Shown here: in pieces, positions 19,982 through 53,362 of the stretch
Layout: every line of letters begins with the position of its first letter
How positions within the stretch are numbered: position 1 is the first letter of the stretch
Assembly (NCBI RefSeq): GCF_964355755.1
Contig: NC_092672.1
Span: 27,224,437-27,288,436 of the forward strand
Source of the DNA: Antedon mediterranea
Taxonomy: Eukaryota; Animalia; Echinodermata
Direction: 5' to 3'
DNA length: 64,000 nt
Notes under the pieces: model-generated
What the model was told of the DNA's origin: nothing
Seen by the model: the letters and a program-made list of their open reading frames with translations, nothing else
Databases searched by the model: none
Made by a program: the position numbers and the translations under genes

Positions 19982-22900
19982 ATGAACCCAAATACAACTC
20001 AAGCTCAGCAAGCTGTAAAAGGCAAAAATAAAACTCAAGCTCATCAAGCTGCAATAGGCAAAAATAAAACTCAAGCTCAGCAAGCTGTAATAGGCAAAAA
20101 TGAAACTCAAGCTCATCAAGCTGCGATAGGCACAAATGCAACTCAAGCTCAGCAAGCTGTAAAAGGCAAAAATAAAACTCAAGCTCATCAAGCTGCAATA
20201 GGCAAAAATGAAACTCAAGCTCAGCAACCTGTAATAGGCAAAAATGAAACTCAAGCTCATCAAGCTTCAATAGGCACAAATGCAACTCAAGCTCAGCAAG
20301 CTGCAATAGGCAAAAATGAATCTCAAGCTCATCAGCACCATCTAGTGCTCCTTCTACAGGCACACAATTGTCAGAGGAGAGAAAACCAGGCTAATGGTGA
20401 ACTAAAACAATGCTCACTTCCACACTGTCGGACCATGAAAAATGTACTCAATCACAAGACACACTGTCAAGCTGGCAGGAACTGTACAGGTATTATATGC
20501 CAAATGTCATCCTTTATAAACCTAGTTCTTATTTTAACCAATAGTTAGTTTTCGCATCACATTGGATGGACTCGTAATTGATCTGTGCATATCCCATTAA
20601 TTTATCGTTCTAGTCTAGTGGCACTACAGAGACGTATTTAATGTTAATAACTGCTGTAATAAAGCATATGATATATTTCTTAGTAATTTTTCCAATGCTT
20701 ATGAATATCTCATTAAAATAACTAAAAAGAAAATAGAGGAAAGAAAACCATGGATCACTTTGGCCATAATAAAATCAATAAACACTGGGACAGATTCTAC
20801 AAACAATTCGTAAAAACTAATATTAATGATAATACATCGGCTAAAAATAAATATAAAACATATTGTAACAAATTGACACATTTGATTCATATATCATGCC
20901 AGAAATATGCTAATAAATTTAATTTATATAAAAATAGTATTAAGCAAACATGGAAAAATATAAATGAAATATTGGGTTAAAATATAAACTAGAAAGCCAC
21001 TCCGAGAGTGCATACCTCCGCCTACTGTAAACTTCTCCTACGTAAGATTTCTCTGGGAAAATATAAATATATAAATTTGTGTGTGTCTTAATGCTGTTTG
21101 TGATTTAGGCTAATTTCACTACAAGCATGTGTGCGAGTTTGGTGTAATGGTTATGTATAACAAGCCTTTCAATTAACAATAGCTTCAGTTGACTAACAAT
21201 AGAACAGCAACGCAAAAATCAAACTAGTGAATATGAAAAAAAATAGGTTTTTTAAACTACTCGCATCAAAAAAGGTGCACGTTAAATCAAATTATGTTTT
21301 AAAATTACAAATCACAAATTATAACTCTTGCCTCTTGTACAAAAAAGAAGTAGTTCTCGAGAAAATGCAATTTCAGTTTACTTGTTATTTTAAGACTGCT
21401 CGCCGGATTTTGAAAAATTCTGTCCTATCTTTTAACACTAGCAGGTCTGAAAAGTATACTAAAAAGTGGTCCAGAATTGGGACCATGCTCCCAAAATTTA
21501 ATGGAATGGTCCTTGAGCACCTATCTATTGTATATTCATTTTGGTAAAGATCTTGTAATTACTTTTTGAGTAATCCTGCTAACAAACAAACAGACAAACA
21601 AACTAGCCTTCGCGCATAGCGTGATACTTGGGCAAATCAAAATTGGCCTGTTGACCTTGACCCGATTTTTACCAAAATTGTGTGTCTTAATGCTGCGTGA
21701 TTTAGGCTAATTTCACTACAATCATGTGTATGCGAATTTGGTGTAAAGGTTATGTAACCAGCCTTTCAACTAACAATAGCTTCAGTCGACTAATAATAGA
21801 ACAGCAACGCGAAAAACACACGGGTGAATTTGAAAATAAATAGGTTTTTTAAACTACTCGCATCAAAAAACCTGTATATTAAATCTAATTATGTTTTAAA
21901 ATTTACAAATCAAAAATAATAACTCTTCCCTCTTTTACAAAAATGAAGTTTTTTGGACAAGTAGTTCTCGAGAAAATGCAATTTTAGTTTACTTGTTACT
22001 TTAAGACTGCTTACCGGCATGTGAAAATTCTGTCTTATCTCTTAACACTAGCAGGTCTGAAAAAATGTCTAAAAAGTGGTCTAGAATTAGGACTGTGGTC
22101 CGGATTTTCACCAAAATTGGGCAGTGTCGTCCTTGCACCAGCCGACATGTATGACAGTAATTTGTAGTTATTCGAATCAAAATTGTGAGCGCTAGAGTGA
22201 TGACAAACAAACACACACACACCCCTACACAAACCGCACCGATCAACATACTTGGCCAATTTTCAATTTGGCCAAGTAACAATCACGCGCAATCGATTAC
22301 AATACTTCCTTGGCAGAGGTAAATAAAGCAAAATCTGGTAAAAAAGCACCGAATATGATGACAATAGATTAAACAAATAGCACTATTTATAGTTCGACCA
22401 CTTTTCATATTTTTAACTTATCTATTCTTACTGGGATTTTTCCCACAGCACCTAAAATAGCTAAAATTATCCCTATCATAAAAAAGATGACCGTCACATT
22501 ATATCTAATTATTGTCCGATATCGCTTCTTTCATGCTTTTCGAAAGTGTTTGAAAAGTTAATCTAGACTCATTGATTTTTTAAACACTATTGATATTCTT
22601 CACCCTAATCAGTGTGTTTTTCGTAAAGAACACTCAACTGACCTAGCATTACTAGATATCTGTAACAAAATCGCCTCTGCTAAAATAAACATACCGTTGG
22701 TGTCTTTATGGATTTATCGAAATCCTTCGACTATTAATGATACCATTTTAAAACATAAACTTGAACATTATGGCATCAGAGGACTCTCTCTTCTATTATT
22801 GAATTATCTTTACGACAGAAAACATATTTTTATTCACATACTTATAATTTACTGCCTGTAAACTGCGGGGTACCACAAGGATCTACTTTAGGTCCTTTAC

Positions 22901-52900: not shown

Positions 52901-53362
52901 TGCAGCTTATAGTGCATTGAACTTCAAGCGATTGATATGTATGTTGCTTAGCAATAGAAAAACATTATCATTCTAAAATAGCTCCTCCATCTTTTATGTG
53001 TTTTGTGTAGATTACTTTATATAATTGTATTTATACCTGTATATACGTTGTTTTAATAGTTGTTTGCTGCTAAAAAAAAGCCAATTTTATTTAAGAACAA
53101 TCTTACACTATTACTATACTCTCATTTAGCAAACAGGAAAAACAGAAATAGACATTTACATTTTAAAAGGATAAAGGTTTTAAGAATTTTCAAATGTGAA
53201 ATTGTTTTATTTCATCATTTAAATTTTCATTTTTGTGTGGGGCATCTTTGTTATTTTTTCATTTTAAATGTTTTGTTGTGTCACTTGAATTATGACATTA
53301 TTTTAAATACATATTTCTTTAATTTCTGCACAGGTTGCACACCATCAATGGGTCAGTCTTAA
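19982..53362 (+). CDS. Chimeric Roco protein: QA-rich repeats - CBP/p300 TAZ1 - KIX - ROC GTPase - COR - basic linker - tandem DED, ~1273 aa. Exons 19982-20489, 24331-24435, 26657-26750, 27200-27317, 27635-27809, 28233-28395, 29067-29173, 38346-38558, 41437-41600, 42839-42928, 46671-46847, 47497-47742, 48164-48352, 48577-48741, 48854-48956, 49920-50125, 50299-50400, 50656-50869, 51186-51260, 51441-51491, 52209-52736, 53334-53362
   Basis: All 21 introns are GT-AG with matching phases. The exons total 3822 nt, one open frame ending in TAA at 53360-53362. An in-frame TGA lies upstream of the ATG and an acceptor at 19876. Domain motifs are listed in the sub-features. Confidence 0.8.
19990..20335 (+). 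repeat. Coding 39-bp minisatellite, ~9 units ([13 protein letters not shown])
   Basis: The unit actcaagctca(g/t)caagctg(c/t)aataggcaaaaa(t)(g/a)aa is repeated in frame directly before TAZ1. Confidence 0.9.
20336..24435 (+). CDS. CBP/p300 TAZ1 (CH1) zinc-finger domain, two exons (to 20489; 24331-24435), part of the chimeric gene
   Basis: [82 protein letters not shown] is near-colinear with CBP TAZ1 ([81 protein letters not shown]). Confidence 0.95.
20690..23090 (+). mobile_element. Degenerate LINE (CR1/L2-group) ORF2 fragments, split by nested insertions
   Basis: RKPWIT...[13 protein letters not shown] at 20740-20980. Frameshifted [50 protein letters not shown] and [12 protein letters not shown] at 22410-22910. 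Confidence 0.75.
20987..22322. mobile_element. Two nested non-autonomous Helentron/HINE-like repeats (outer ~20987-22322, inner ~21601-22281)
   Basis: Internal segments are duplicated (21080-21470 vs 21680-22080). Short subterminal inverted repeats (acctccgcc / ggcagaggt; tacttggcca...tggccaagta) and acaa/aca microsatellites. The same core recurs at 62450-62518 and 63234-63330. Confidence 0.55.
25530..26285. repeat. Intronic minisatellite, 45-46-bp unit, ~16 copies
   Basis: The unit acgtgacaaaacgaggacagaaggaacaaagacacaggacaaaaac is repeated head to tail. Confidence 0.95.
26320..26570 (-). mobile_element. LINE 3' fragment
   Basis: [28 protein letters not shown]...GPILWNSL is the typical C-terminal end of CR1/L2-group ORF2. 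Confidence 0.6.
26657..27809 (+). CDS. CBP/p300 KIX domain, three exons (26657-26750, 27200-27317, 27635-27809), part of the chimeric gene
   Basis: [80 protein letters not shown] compared with CBP KIX [80 protein letters not shown]. Confidence 0.95.
28233..50869 (+). CDS. ROC-COR (Roco GTPase) exons of the chimeric gene
   Basis: [24 protein letters not shown]-loop [11 protein letters not shown]2-like ITDAI, G3 [12 protein letters not shown]4 [12 protein letters not shown] motifs [28 protein letters not shown] and YLPDDLFQR. Confidence 0.88.
31027..33380 (+). mobile_element. 5'-truncated LINE (CR1/L2-group) with endonuclease tail, frameshifted RT and 3' UTR, in a Roco intron
   Basis: [10 protein letters not shown]...SDH, KAGGPDG, RPISLT, QFG, DFSKAF, GVPQG, KYVDD and RPVLEYA..WH across three ORFs joined by two frameshifts. 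AATAAA plus an (AT)n tail near 33360. Possible imperfect TSD tacctaggt (31020) / tacctaagt (33382). Confidence 0.9.
34020..34960 (+). mobile_element. Degenerate 3' fragment of a related LINE
   Basis: [22 protein letters not shown] and [13 protein letters not shown], with frameshifts. The 3' UTR has aattcagc...gctgc as in the 31-33 kb copy. Confidence 0.8.
36320..37770. repeat. Intronic tandem repeat, ~97-bp unit, ~15 copies
   Basis: Unit actggtgccaaattgggtccac(t/g)tgagcacagtgtattaacatac...atatcactgtgctcc. Confidence 0.95.
43143..43627. mobile_element. MITE (PIF/Harbinger-like) with ~50-bp TIRs and AAT TSD
   Basis: agagaggtttcgcaatcttacgaatacgataacgaaaacggatacgtca / tgacgtatccgttttcgttatcgtattcgtaaggttgcgaaacctccct, with AAT on both flanks. 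Confidence 0.85.
44400..45450 (-). mobile_element. Degenerate LINE RT 3' half
   Basis: [37 protein letters not shown] and [12 protein letters not shown] on the minus strand, with frameshifts. Confidence 0.75.
49090..49310 (+). mobile_element. tRNA-derived SINE
   Basis: A-box-like gtggtctattggttagg, B-box-like ggttccagtcttgg, a tRNA-sized head and an (AT)n tail at ~49275-49300. The cloverleaf is degenerate. Confidence 0.6.
52209..52736 (+). CDS. Tandem death-effector-domain exon of the chimeric gene
   Basis: FVQIK...[18 protein letters not shown]...[21 protein letters not shown], and [24 protein letters not shown]...[18 protein letters not shown]...L, which fits the DED pattern (R..L..I.EEL...DL..LKF...F..LE....I...NL..L). 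Phase 1-1 exon. Confidence 0.8.

Follow-up and report, generated by a model that had tools for sequence, protein, structure and literature searches.

The 64,000-nucleotide (nt) stretch of Antedon mediterranea DNA analyzed here (NC_092672.1, positions 27,224,437 to 27,288,436; hereafter the window) has a G+C content of about 32% and carries, on its forward strand at 19982–53362, a gene whose predicted product places a copy of the CBP/p300 docking domains TAZ1 and KIX in front of a Roco protein. The gene consists of 22 exons and 1273 codons, with a sole stop codon at its end (53360–53362); all introns have GT..AG borders, and the exon phases agree throughout. The translation corresponds letter for letter to RefSeq XP_071945975.1 (P0001), an 'uncharacterized protein' of A. 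mediterranea, and exon 12 used as the query returned the 1273-amino-acid (aa) protein at 100%. The domain order is TAZ1, KIX, ROC, COR and a DED pair, and the gene is a candidate integrated-decoy immune sensor. An earlier note, drawn from the letters of the window, had proposed that TAZ1 and KIX exons of CBP origin splice in frame into ROC-COR and a tandem DED with no stop over about 1273 codons. The matching phases, the open frame and the identical RefSeq model confirm this gene structure.

Domain Organization

Pfam places zf-TAZ at residues 118–194 (E 3e-14), KIX at 218–294 (E 6e-27; 94.3 bits against a cut-off of 27) and COR-A at 697–840 (E 4e-13; 49.8 bits), with ROC and COR adjacent. The Roc match (residues 510–563, E 8e-6, 26.5 bits) lies just below the cut-off of 27, and the DED match (residues 1112–1173, E 9e-6) is also below its cut-off. 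Comparison with PDB sequences returned CBP/p300 TAZ1 (E 1e-39) and KIX (E 8e-28), together with weak matches to bacterial Roco proteins, and the atlas score of P0001 as a Roco is 0.98. No bromodomain, HAT, ZZ or TAZ2 domain was found in P0001 by Pfam, in agreement with the earlier note, and a tblastn search of the window with two full p300-like proteins returned the TAZ1/KIX exons only. By its domain content, P0001 is a Roco protein and neither a CBP, as the bromodomain-HAT core is absent, nor in the strict sense an NLR with an integrated domain (NLR-ID). The exons are collected in Table 1. Exon 16 begins with 11 codons more than its Antedon paralogs (49920–49952), and the frame is intact there.

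Table 1. Exons of the CBP-Roco fusion gene and associated features (window coordinates).
Feature	Position	Strand	Description
Exon 1	19982..20489	+	aa 1-169; 12-aa repeat (36-bp unit), then first half of TAZ1; zf-TAZ match; PDB CBP TAZ1 E 4e-21
Exon 2	24331..24435	+	aa 170-204; second half of TAZ1; zf-TAZ positions 49-72
Exon 3	26657..26750	+	aa 205-235; start of KIX helix 1; last 30 letters joined to exon 4 in X8 contig, 0 differences
Exon 4	27200..27317	+	aa 236-275; middle of KIX, KIX E 1e-10; joint 27316/27634 GT..AG in X9
Exon 5	27635..27809	+	aa 276-333; KIX helix 3, with Leu at the Tyr658 equivalent; tail of CBP type; phase-1 donor
Fusion intron	27810..28232	+	423 nt between CBP part and Roco part; skipped GT..AG in X9 contig 27; present in DNA-type X1 and X5 contigs
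Exon 6	28233..28395	+	aa 334-387; first ROC exon, P-loop GLERVGKTS; N-terminus swap point of Antedon Rocos; joined to exon 7 in X8 and X9
Exon 7	29067..29173	+	aa 388-423; ROC switch I region
Exon 8	38346..38558	+	aa 424-494; acidic ROC insertion
Exon 9	41437..41600	+	aa 495-549; ROC G3 motif DFGGQ
Exon 10	42839..42928	+	aa 550-579; ROC
Exon 11	46671..46847	+	aa 580-638; ROC G4 region GTHLH (GTHLN in Antedon paralogs)
Exon 12	47497..47742	+	aa 639-720; end of ROC, start of COR
Exons 13-18	48164-48352, 48577-48741, 48854-48956, 49920-50125, 50299-50400, 50656-50869	+	aa 721-1046; COR
Exons 19-20	51186-51260, 51441-51491	+	aa 1047-1088; linker with two basic clusters resembling putative nuclear import signals
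Exon 21	52209..52736	+	aa 1089-1264; DED pair; DED E 8e-8
Exon 22 and stop codon	53334..53362	+	aa 1265-1273
Broken tandem copy of DED exon and last exon	53480..54383	+	DED exon copy 79% identity, in-frame stops; outside reading frame

The Fusion Junction

Contigs of four runs (X1, X5, X8 and X9) were compared with the window over 27190–28430; joints outside this interval rest on splice signals, paralogs and RefSeq. X5 and X9 derive from organism B (X9 from study P2), and X8 derives from organism A (study P3) and is presumed to be RNA. The RNA status of X9 is inferred from contigs that skip two GT..AG introns and from thin intron coverage. One X9 contig joins 27809 to 28233, skipping the 423 nt of 27810–28232 at GT..AG borders and continuing into exon 7, in accordance with the phase-1 junction given in the earlier note. 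This contig has 62 letters on its short side and 3 differences in 225. In X8, exons 3-4, 4-5 and 6-7 are joined; the bins 27778–27903 have no cover, which counts as no evidence, the fusion joint is not listed, and the exon-6 contig starts exactly at 28233.

The X1 contigs 27332–28215 and 28186–28308 overlap with 0 differences and cover the fusion intron, and an X5 contig across 27914–28318 holds the intron in a second study. The misassembly that the earlier note had named as a refutation is thus excluded for the fusion intron. The fusion is genomic and common to a close relative, in which it is spliced. As a rival explanation, a CBP pseudogene and a distinct Roco gene could have been joined artificially during assembly or annotation; this would be compatible with a joint spliced in one of the four runs, whose organism is a relative and not that of the window, and with the limited interval of the contig comparison. 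Overlapping DNA contigs without differences, the intron in a second study, the exact GT..AG joint and the identical, independent RefSeq model argue against such a chimera, which we consider highly improbable.

Over 27190–28308 in X1, window-identical contigs have a depth of 285–418 and sibling contigs a depth of 136–151. Several near-identical copies may exist, although depth is no copy number.

Origin of the Two Halves

The CBP part retains four introns and is, for this reason, a copy made at the DNA level. An origin as a retrocopy was discarded on the basis of the four introns and of both DNA-type X5 copies of exon 4, which run into the same intron. The KIX domain and tail of P0001 group with the crinoid p300-like protein P0006 (support 98/95), and the exon 5 tail aligns with P0006 as well. 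In its TAZ1 and KIX sequence, P0001 is 68% identical to P0006 over 107 columns. P0006 (XP_033112096.1, Anneissia japonica) is an atypical paralog of the p300 type that has only half of TAZ1 and carries an additional, degenerate TAZ and KIX. Together with the Pfam and PDB matches, this grouping demonstrates that the front of the predicted protein derives from a crinoid CBP/p300 gene, and the CBP origin claimed in the earlier note is borne out. Crinoids may hold several rearranged CBP copies, of which P0006 is an example. No Antedon CBP occurs among the best 120 of 255 matches, whose range of 700–2228 aa lies below many full-length CBPs; a spliced CBP-like contig exists in organism B.

The ROC-COR part is 57–68% identical to five Antedon Rocos that carry no CBP domains, and is sister to them (support 99). 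Antedon Rocos with a complete front have different N-termini joined at the same first ROC exon, namely a DED-like pair, an NLR piece or an LRR-like tail (labels of P0004 and P0126 assigned by eye). In P0124 the front consists of an NLR piece that shares 63% identity with the DED-NACHT-LRR gene at 3942–9477 of the window. Phase-1 exon shuffling onto the first ROC exon is the likely route by which the fusion arose.

The unrelated fronts at one joint also favor an explanation in which the fusion is a by-product of shuffling: the first ROC exon would accept any upstream phase-1 exon, selection would keep the Roco-DED part, and the CBP part would decay or serve as promoter or start. The surrounding region, rich in duplications and broken elements, is consistent with this view. 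In opposition to it, the reading frame runs through all five CBP exons, their splice sites are intact, and a second organism has kept the junction and splices it.

Recurrence of CBP Captures

In a TAZ1-KIX search, Roc or COR is carried by two of the best 120 of 255 matches, P0001 and P0047 (XP_072043680.1), the latter from the brittle star Amphiura filiformis with TAZ1-KIX joined at the same ROC position. A second TAZ1-KIX search returned no further Roco fusion among the best 120 of 125 matches. The best 150 of 9,885 matches of a HMMER search with P0047 comprise 63 Roco and 91 TAZ/KIX proteins, four of them being both. P0215 has the order TAZ1-ROC-COR, and P0261, which we take to be sponge-like, has TAZ1-KIX-ZZ-ROC-COR. 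P0264 (TAZ1-ROC) has crinoid-like flanks and differs from the others in a breakpoint before KIX. A Pfam scan of 40 of the 63 Rocos revealed P0331, a Roco with the CBP Creb_binding domain (NCBD) and a Death domain, which was recovered even though the query P0047 holds no Creb_binding domain.

The fusions thus number six in all (P0001, P0047, P0215, P0264, P0261 and P0331), and they occupy six separate places on a 63-row ROC-COR tree with a minimum of 6 changes. The tree was built by a quick method, with P0264 20% filled, P0261 on a long branch, some neighbors N-terminally truncated and six short rows omitted (P0295, P0305, P0292, P0214, P0268 and P0324). A single clade of CBP parts is rejected by the approximately unbiased (AU) test both for P0001 with P0047 (p-AU 0.016; hypothesis stated beforehand) and for the five TAZ1 fusions (p-AU 0.007). 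One ancestral echinoderm fusion is rejected by these two values and by the six places on the ROC-COR tree. The results demonstrate that, in predicted proteins, Rocos captured CBP domains repeatedly and independently; six separate origins count against a shuffling by-product.

CBP pieces are found on other immune-type scaffolds as well. P0192 (XP_046893865.1, delta smelt; several RefSeq isoforms) combines N-terminal repeats, a RING and a B-box with p300-derived TAZ1 and KIX. Among 48 of the 91 TAZ/KIX proteins scanned with Pfam, two have a SOCS box (P0216, TAZ1 with three KIX; P0226, four KIX), one a SPRY domain (P0323, TAZ repeats) and one a pRiA4b ORF3 domain (P0243, two TAZ and a KIX). Judged by their domains, the SOCS-box forms could ubiquitinate KIX binders. 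An amphioxus CARD-Death-TAZ-LRR protein is listed in a supplement table of PMC8195603 (12 of 13 files covered).

In the same 40 of 63 Rocos, Pfam detects Death, TIR, CARD, DED, caspase, HEPN, GT4 or kinase domains behind COR, and Neuralized, Macro, Ras, Bcl-2, SH2, kinase, NACHT, HEPN, fn3 or ankyrin domains in front. This layout is that of a sensor, a switch and an effector, with the immune role of the chassis deduced from its domains. Fronts other than CBP were seen in P0284, P0246, P0247, P0231, P0219 and P0253, including Bcl-2 (with a C-terminal caspase), Ras, Macro and NACHT. AP-GTPase/COR proteins are treated as immune or apoptotic switches in the covered part of PMC8195603, and brown-algal LRR-Rocos are proposed as immune receptors in that of PMC11378527.

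The architecture, of which the earlier note knew no described Roco, is undescribed in the literature searched (top-ranked titles and abstract openings), although it is not unique: it has an unnamed RefSeq model and recurs in other animals. TAZ and KIX do not appear in the text or one supplement of PMC11378527, a scope that leaves aside Figure 2 with its roughly forty animal architectures. 'Roc' and 'KIX' are likewise absent from the main text of the brittle star genome paper in its covered part (PMC11310086), as are Roc and GTPase from the covered part of KIXBASE (PMC5668377).

ROC Switch, Linker and DED Pair

The G1 (GLERVGKTS at 371) and G3 (DFGGQ at 537) motifs of P0001 are intact. The G4 motif reads THLH, with Asn at the last position in Antedon paralogs; because G4 ends in His, the handling of GTP by P0001 may differ. 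Two basic clusters sit between COR and the DEDs. They are found in three of the six fusions, in 6 of 58 other Roco representatives and in none of the six Antedon paralogs, and give a weak hint of nuclear import.

The tandem DED described in the earlier note stands in part. The first DED is matched by Pfam below the cut-off, and a second is suggested by the atlas, in which residues 1090–1265 resemble DED and v-FLIP-like clusters of 171–199 aa (0.91–0.92, a lead); Pfam finds no second DED in P0001. Comparison of the DED exon with PDB sequences gave a single chance match, and its single-sequence AlphaFold model had a predicted local distance difference test (pLDDT) value of 40 and was dropped.

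Binding Surfaces and Sequence Change

The linker that separates TAZ1 and KIX in CBP is deleted in P0001. With KIX numbering inferred from chain 1sb0 taken as residues 586–672, all six residues of the MLL/Tax site given in the covered part of PMC12698673 are kept (I611, F612, L628, Y631, I660 and L664). At the c-Myb/CREB site (Y650, A654 and Y658), two of three are kept and Tyr658 is replaced by Leu; the equivalent residue is Trp in P0047. Of the eight residues that PMC3760798 describes for the RelA Leu465 pocket, three (I353, Q413 and I414) are changed in P0001.

The contig comparison lists 40 of 69 differing places. Relative to X9 contig 25, whose flanking letters mark it as CBP-like, there are 19 differences in 14 codons, all of them residue-changing. 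Over the KIX stretches that appear to be fully listed, 16 of 17 differences from the X9 contig are nonsynonymous, with a ratio of nonsynonymous to synonymous change (pN/pS) of about 5–7 and a P value of 0.056 without transition bias or 0.02–0.03 with it. In X8 sibling contigs, 9 of 10 listed differing codons are nonsynonymous. These differences lean beyond the neutral share and speak against a KIX copy left to decay by shuffling. ROC exon 6 differs from the X9 contig at 1 of 163 nt, and the fusion intron differs from X5 at no fewer than 14 of 319 (Fisher p 0.025). The counts, which are no formal test of selection, suggest a conserved switch and a fast-changing front.

These surfaces bear on the view that P0001 senses or soaks up activated transcription factors of the host itself (NF-kB RelA and others), coupling them to death signaling or dampening it. 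RelA binds both KIX and TAZ1 according to the covered part of PMC3760798, the two domains stay paired in P0001, P0047 and P0261, and the basic clusters hint at nuclear import. The altered RelA pocket and the loss of Tyr658 point in the other direction; moreover, a surface used by host partners should be conserved, whereas the differences between close copies lie mostly at the amino-acid level. We regard this explanation as unlikely.

Genomic Neighborhood

A gene at 3942–9477 on the same strand, 10 kb upstream, combines a DED exon with a 1.2-kaa NACHT-LRR exon containing 177-bp (59-aa) repeats; it is a possible helper NLR. At 57115–62032 there are intronless open reading frames (ORFs), including an acidic ORF of 241 aa that matches nothing in Pfam, a reverse-strand ORF resembling Bcl-2 (59822–60229, E 1e-4) and a short P-loop-like piece (61730–62032) for which Pfam gives no clear match. 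We take this region to resemble the remnant of an integrated DNA virus-like element. Reverse-transcriptase pieces like those of long interspersed nuclear elements are located at 31027–33188 (forward strand, inside intron 7), 2–925 and 61986–62474 (both reverse strand). Introns 2 and 7 hold minisatellites of 46 bp in 16.5 copies (25536–26288) and 98 bp in 15.3 copies (36317–37769), respectively.

The Integrated-Decoy Reading

We read the fusion gene as an immune sensor of the integrated-decoy type, built on a Roco chassis, an interpretation that we hold to be evenly balanced between right and wrong. The predicted protein has a host-derived domain fused to an immune-type switch protein, as an integrated decoy does, with the role of the chassis taken from its domains. 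The reading is supported by the six separate captures, by the immune-type context of the family, by the presence of CBP domains on further immune-type scaffolds, by the amino-acid excess in KIX and by the retained MLL-site residues alongside the altered Tyr658. The earlier note, which had arrived at the same idea, is borne out in part; it overlooked the damage to TAZ1 and the unusual G4 of this candidate decoy.

DEDs recruit FADD/caspase-8, and E6, Tat and HBZ bind CBP. In the proposed mechanism, a pathogen protein aimed at CBP would bind the bait, most likely at the intact MLL/Tax face of KIX, and binding would shift the nucleotide or dimer state of ROC-COR. This shift would in turn let the DED pair nucleate its DED partners, either caspase-8/FADD-like proteins or the DED-NACHT-LRR neighbor, leading to cell death or inflammatory signaling. 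With the CREB/Myb-face tyrosine and part of the RelA pocket gone, transcription factors of the host itself would trigger the protein less readily, and the basic clusters may direct it to the nucleus alongside CBP. The viral hijackers named in the earlier note are mammalian, and of these, Tax at the KIX MLL site is the one described in the papers covered (PMC12698673); no viral binder of TAZ1 or KIX appears in the covered part of PMC9693201.

Several observations weigh against the decoy reading, beginning with the condition of the bait. Across columns at least 90% conserved in 170 TAZ1 and 195 KIX rows, P0001 differs at 18 of 74 TAZ1 columns (maximum of 15 in comparison rows) and at 20 of 66 KIX columns (maximum of 14). 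Exon 1 is mostly a 36-bp repeat in 10.5 copies that stands in for the start of TAZ1 helix 1, half of which is gone. The TAZ zinc finger has three His-Cys3 zinc sites (PMC3760798, covered part), and P0001 keeps 11 of the 12 ligands. The first His, placed by the H-x3-C spacing of zinc sites 2 and 3, is replaced by Gln, and a His two residues on remains. The lost ligand is, we presume, residue number 362. P0215 and P0192 have likewise lost a zinc ligand, and decay explains this equally well. Tyr658 is unchanged in P0261, P0192 and P0216, the basic clusters are absent from P0261, P0264 and P0331, and His does not occur as the last G4 residue in 43 matching Roco representatives (17 Asp, 14 Asn, 12 other).

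The remaining objections concern the comparisons. The nonsynonymous excess is borderline, since 9 of about 28 differences are unlisted and would bring pN/pS to 0.5–0.7 if all were silent, and the KIX stretches were chosen after the listing was seen. In a larger CBP tree, the Amphiura-Acanthaster pair loses support. The five fusions besides P0001 are predicted gene models, and the recurrence searches began from TAZ/KIX queries, so that their counts give no enrichment of CBP over other captured domains. Partial duplicates of CBP that have no immune partner are common (P0005, P0006, P0132 and P0133), and no ligand, pathogen or activity is known for the fusion. The common duplicates, together with the zinc ligand and helix residues lost from TAZ1, also favor the by-product of shuffling; the well-preserved domains of Amphiura P0047 (6 of 74 changes in TAZ1, 8 of 66 in KIX) count against it, and we judge that explanation rather unlikely.

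Comparison with Known Systems

Integrated decoys are well established in plants, and the best-known animal case is TRIMCyp, which arose from retrocopies and binds retroviral capsids. Should the Antedon fusion function at all, it would do so in the manner of these two systems. The plant NLR-IDs (RRS1-WRKY and the HMA domains of Pik-1 and RGA5; covered part of PMC10561179) resemble the Antedon fusion in that a host domain copy is placed on a nucleotide-switch receptor, the captured domain comes from a transcription regulator, as here from CBP, the integrated domain changes faster, and a possible helper NLR adjoins. The fusion differs in its ROC-COR chassis, which is not NB-ARC-LRR, in its animal host, and in having no known effector; Pik-1 and Pik-2 lie head to head, whereas the Antedon fusion and its NLR neighbor lie tail to head. 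TRIMCyp (cyclophilin A with TRIM5; covered part of PMC6677749) shares the repeated, independent fusion of a host hub to an animal immune scaffold. In the Antedon fusion, unlike TRIMCyp, introns still separate the CBP exons, and a GTPase with DEDs serves as the scaffold; the smelt protein P0192 (RING-B-box-TAZ1-KIX) is a closer analogue of TRIMCyp than P0001.

With kinase-less invertebrate Rocos bearing Death, CARD or DED domains (Roc PF08477, COR-A PF16095), P0001 has in common the ROC-COR core, G1 and G3, a variable N-terminus and a death-fold C-terminus; its N-terminus is a CBP copy instead of LRRs or ankyrins, and its G4 ends in His. LRRK2 and DAPK1 possess a kinase, which P0001 lacks. CBP/p300 (KAT3) proteins share the TAZ1 and KIX sequence, whereas P0001 is devoid of the bromodomain, HAT, ZZ, TAZ2 and NCBD, has lost the linker, and has changed binding and zinc residues.

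Implications

More broadly, invertebrate Rocos may constitute an unrecognized animal class of integrated decoys that captures pathogen-targeted hubs at the first exon (CBP TAZ1, KIX and NCBD at least 6 times; Ras, Bcl-2 and Macro) and signals via death-fold or caspase domains, a tentative proposal to which we assign slightly under an even chance. The idea is directly testable, because the bait domain is small and soluble and its parent is known. If true, animals in general would guard CBP/p300 as a hub, the captures on TRIM and SOCS-box scaffolds would be parallel cases, and the captured domains would list host proteins attacked by marine pathogens. It would also show how a ligand triggers the ROC-COR switch, a question that extends to the relatives of LRRK2, and the repeated capture of CBP docking domains would give a function to the large unexplained expansions of invertebrate Rocos.

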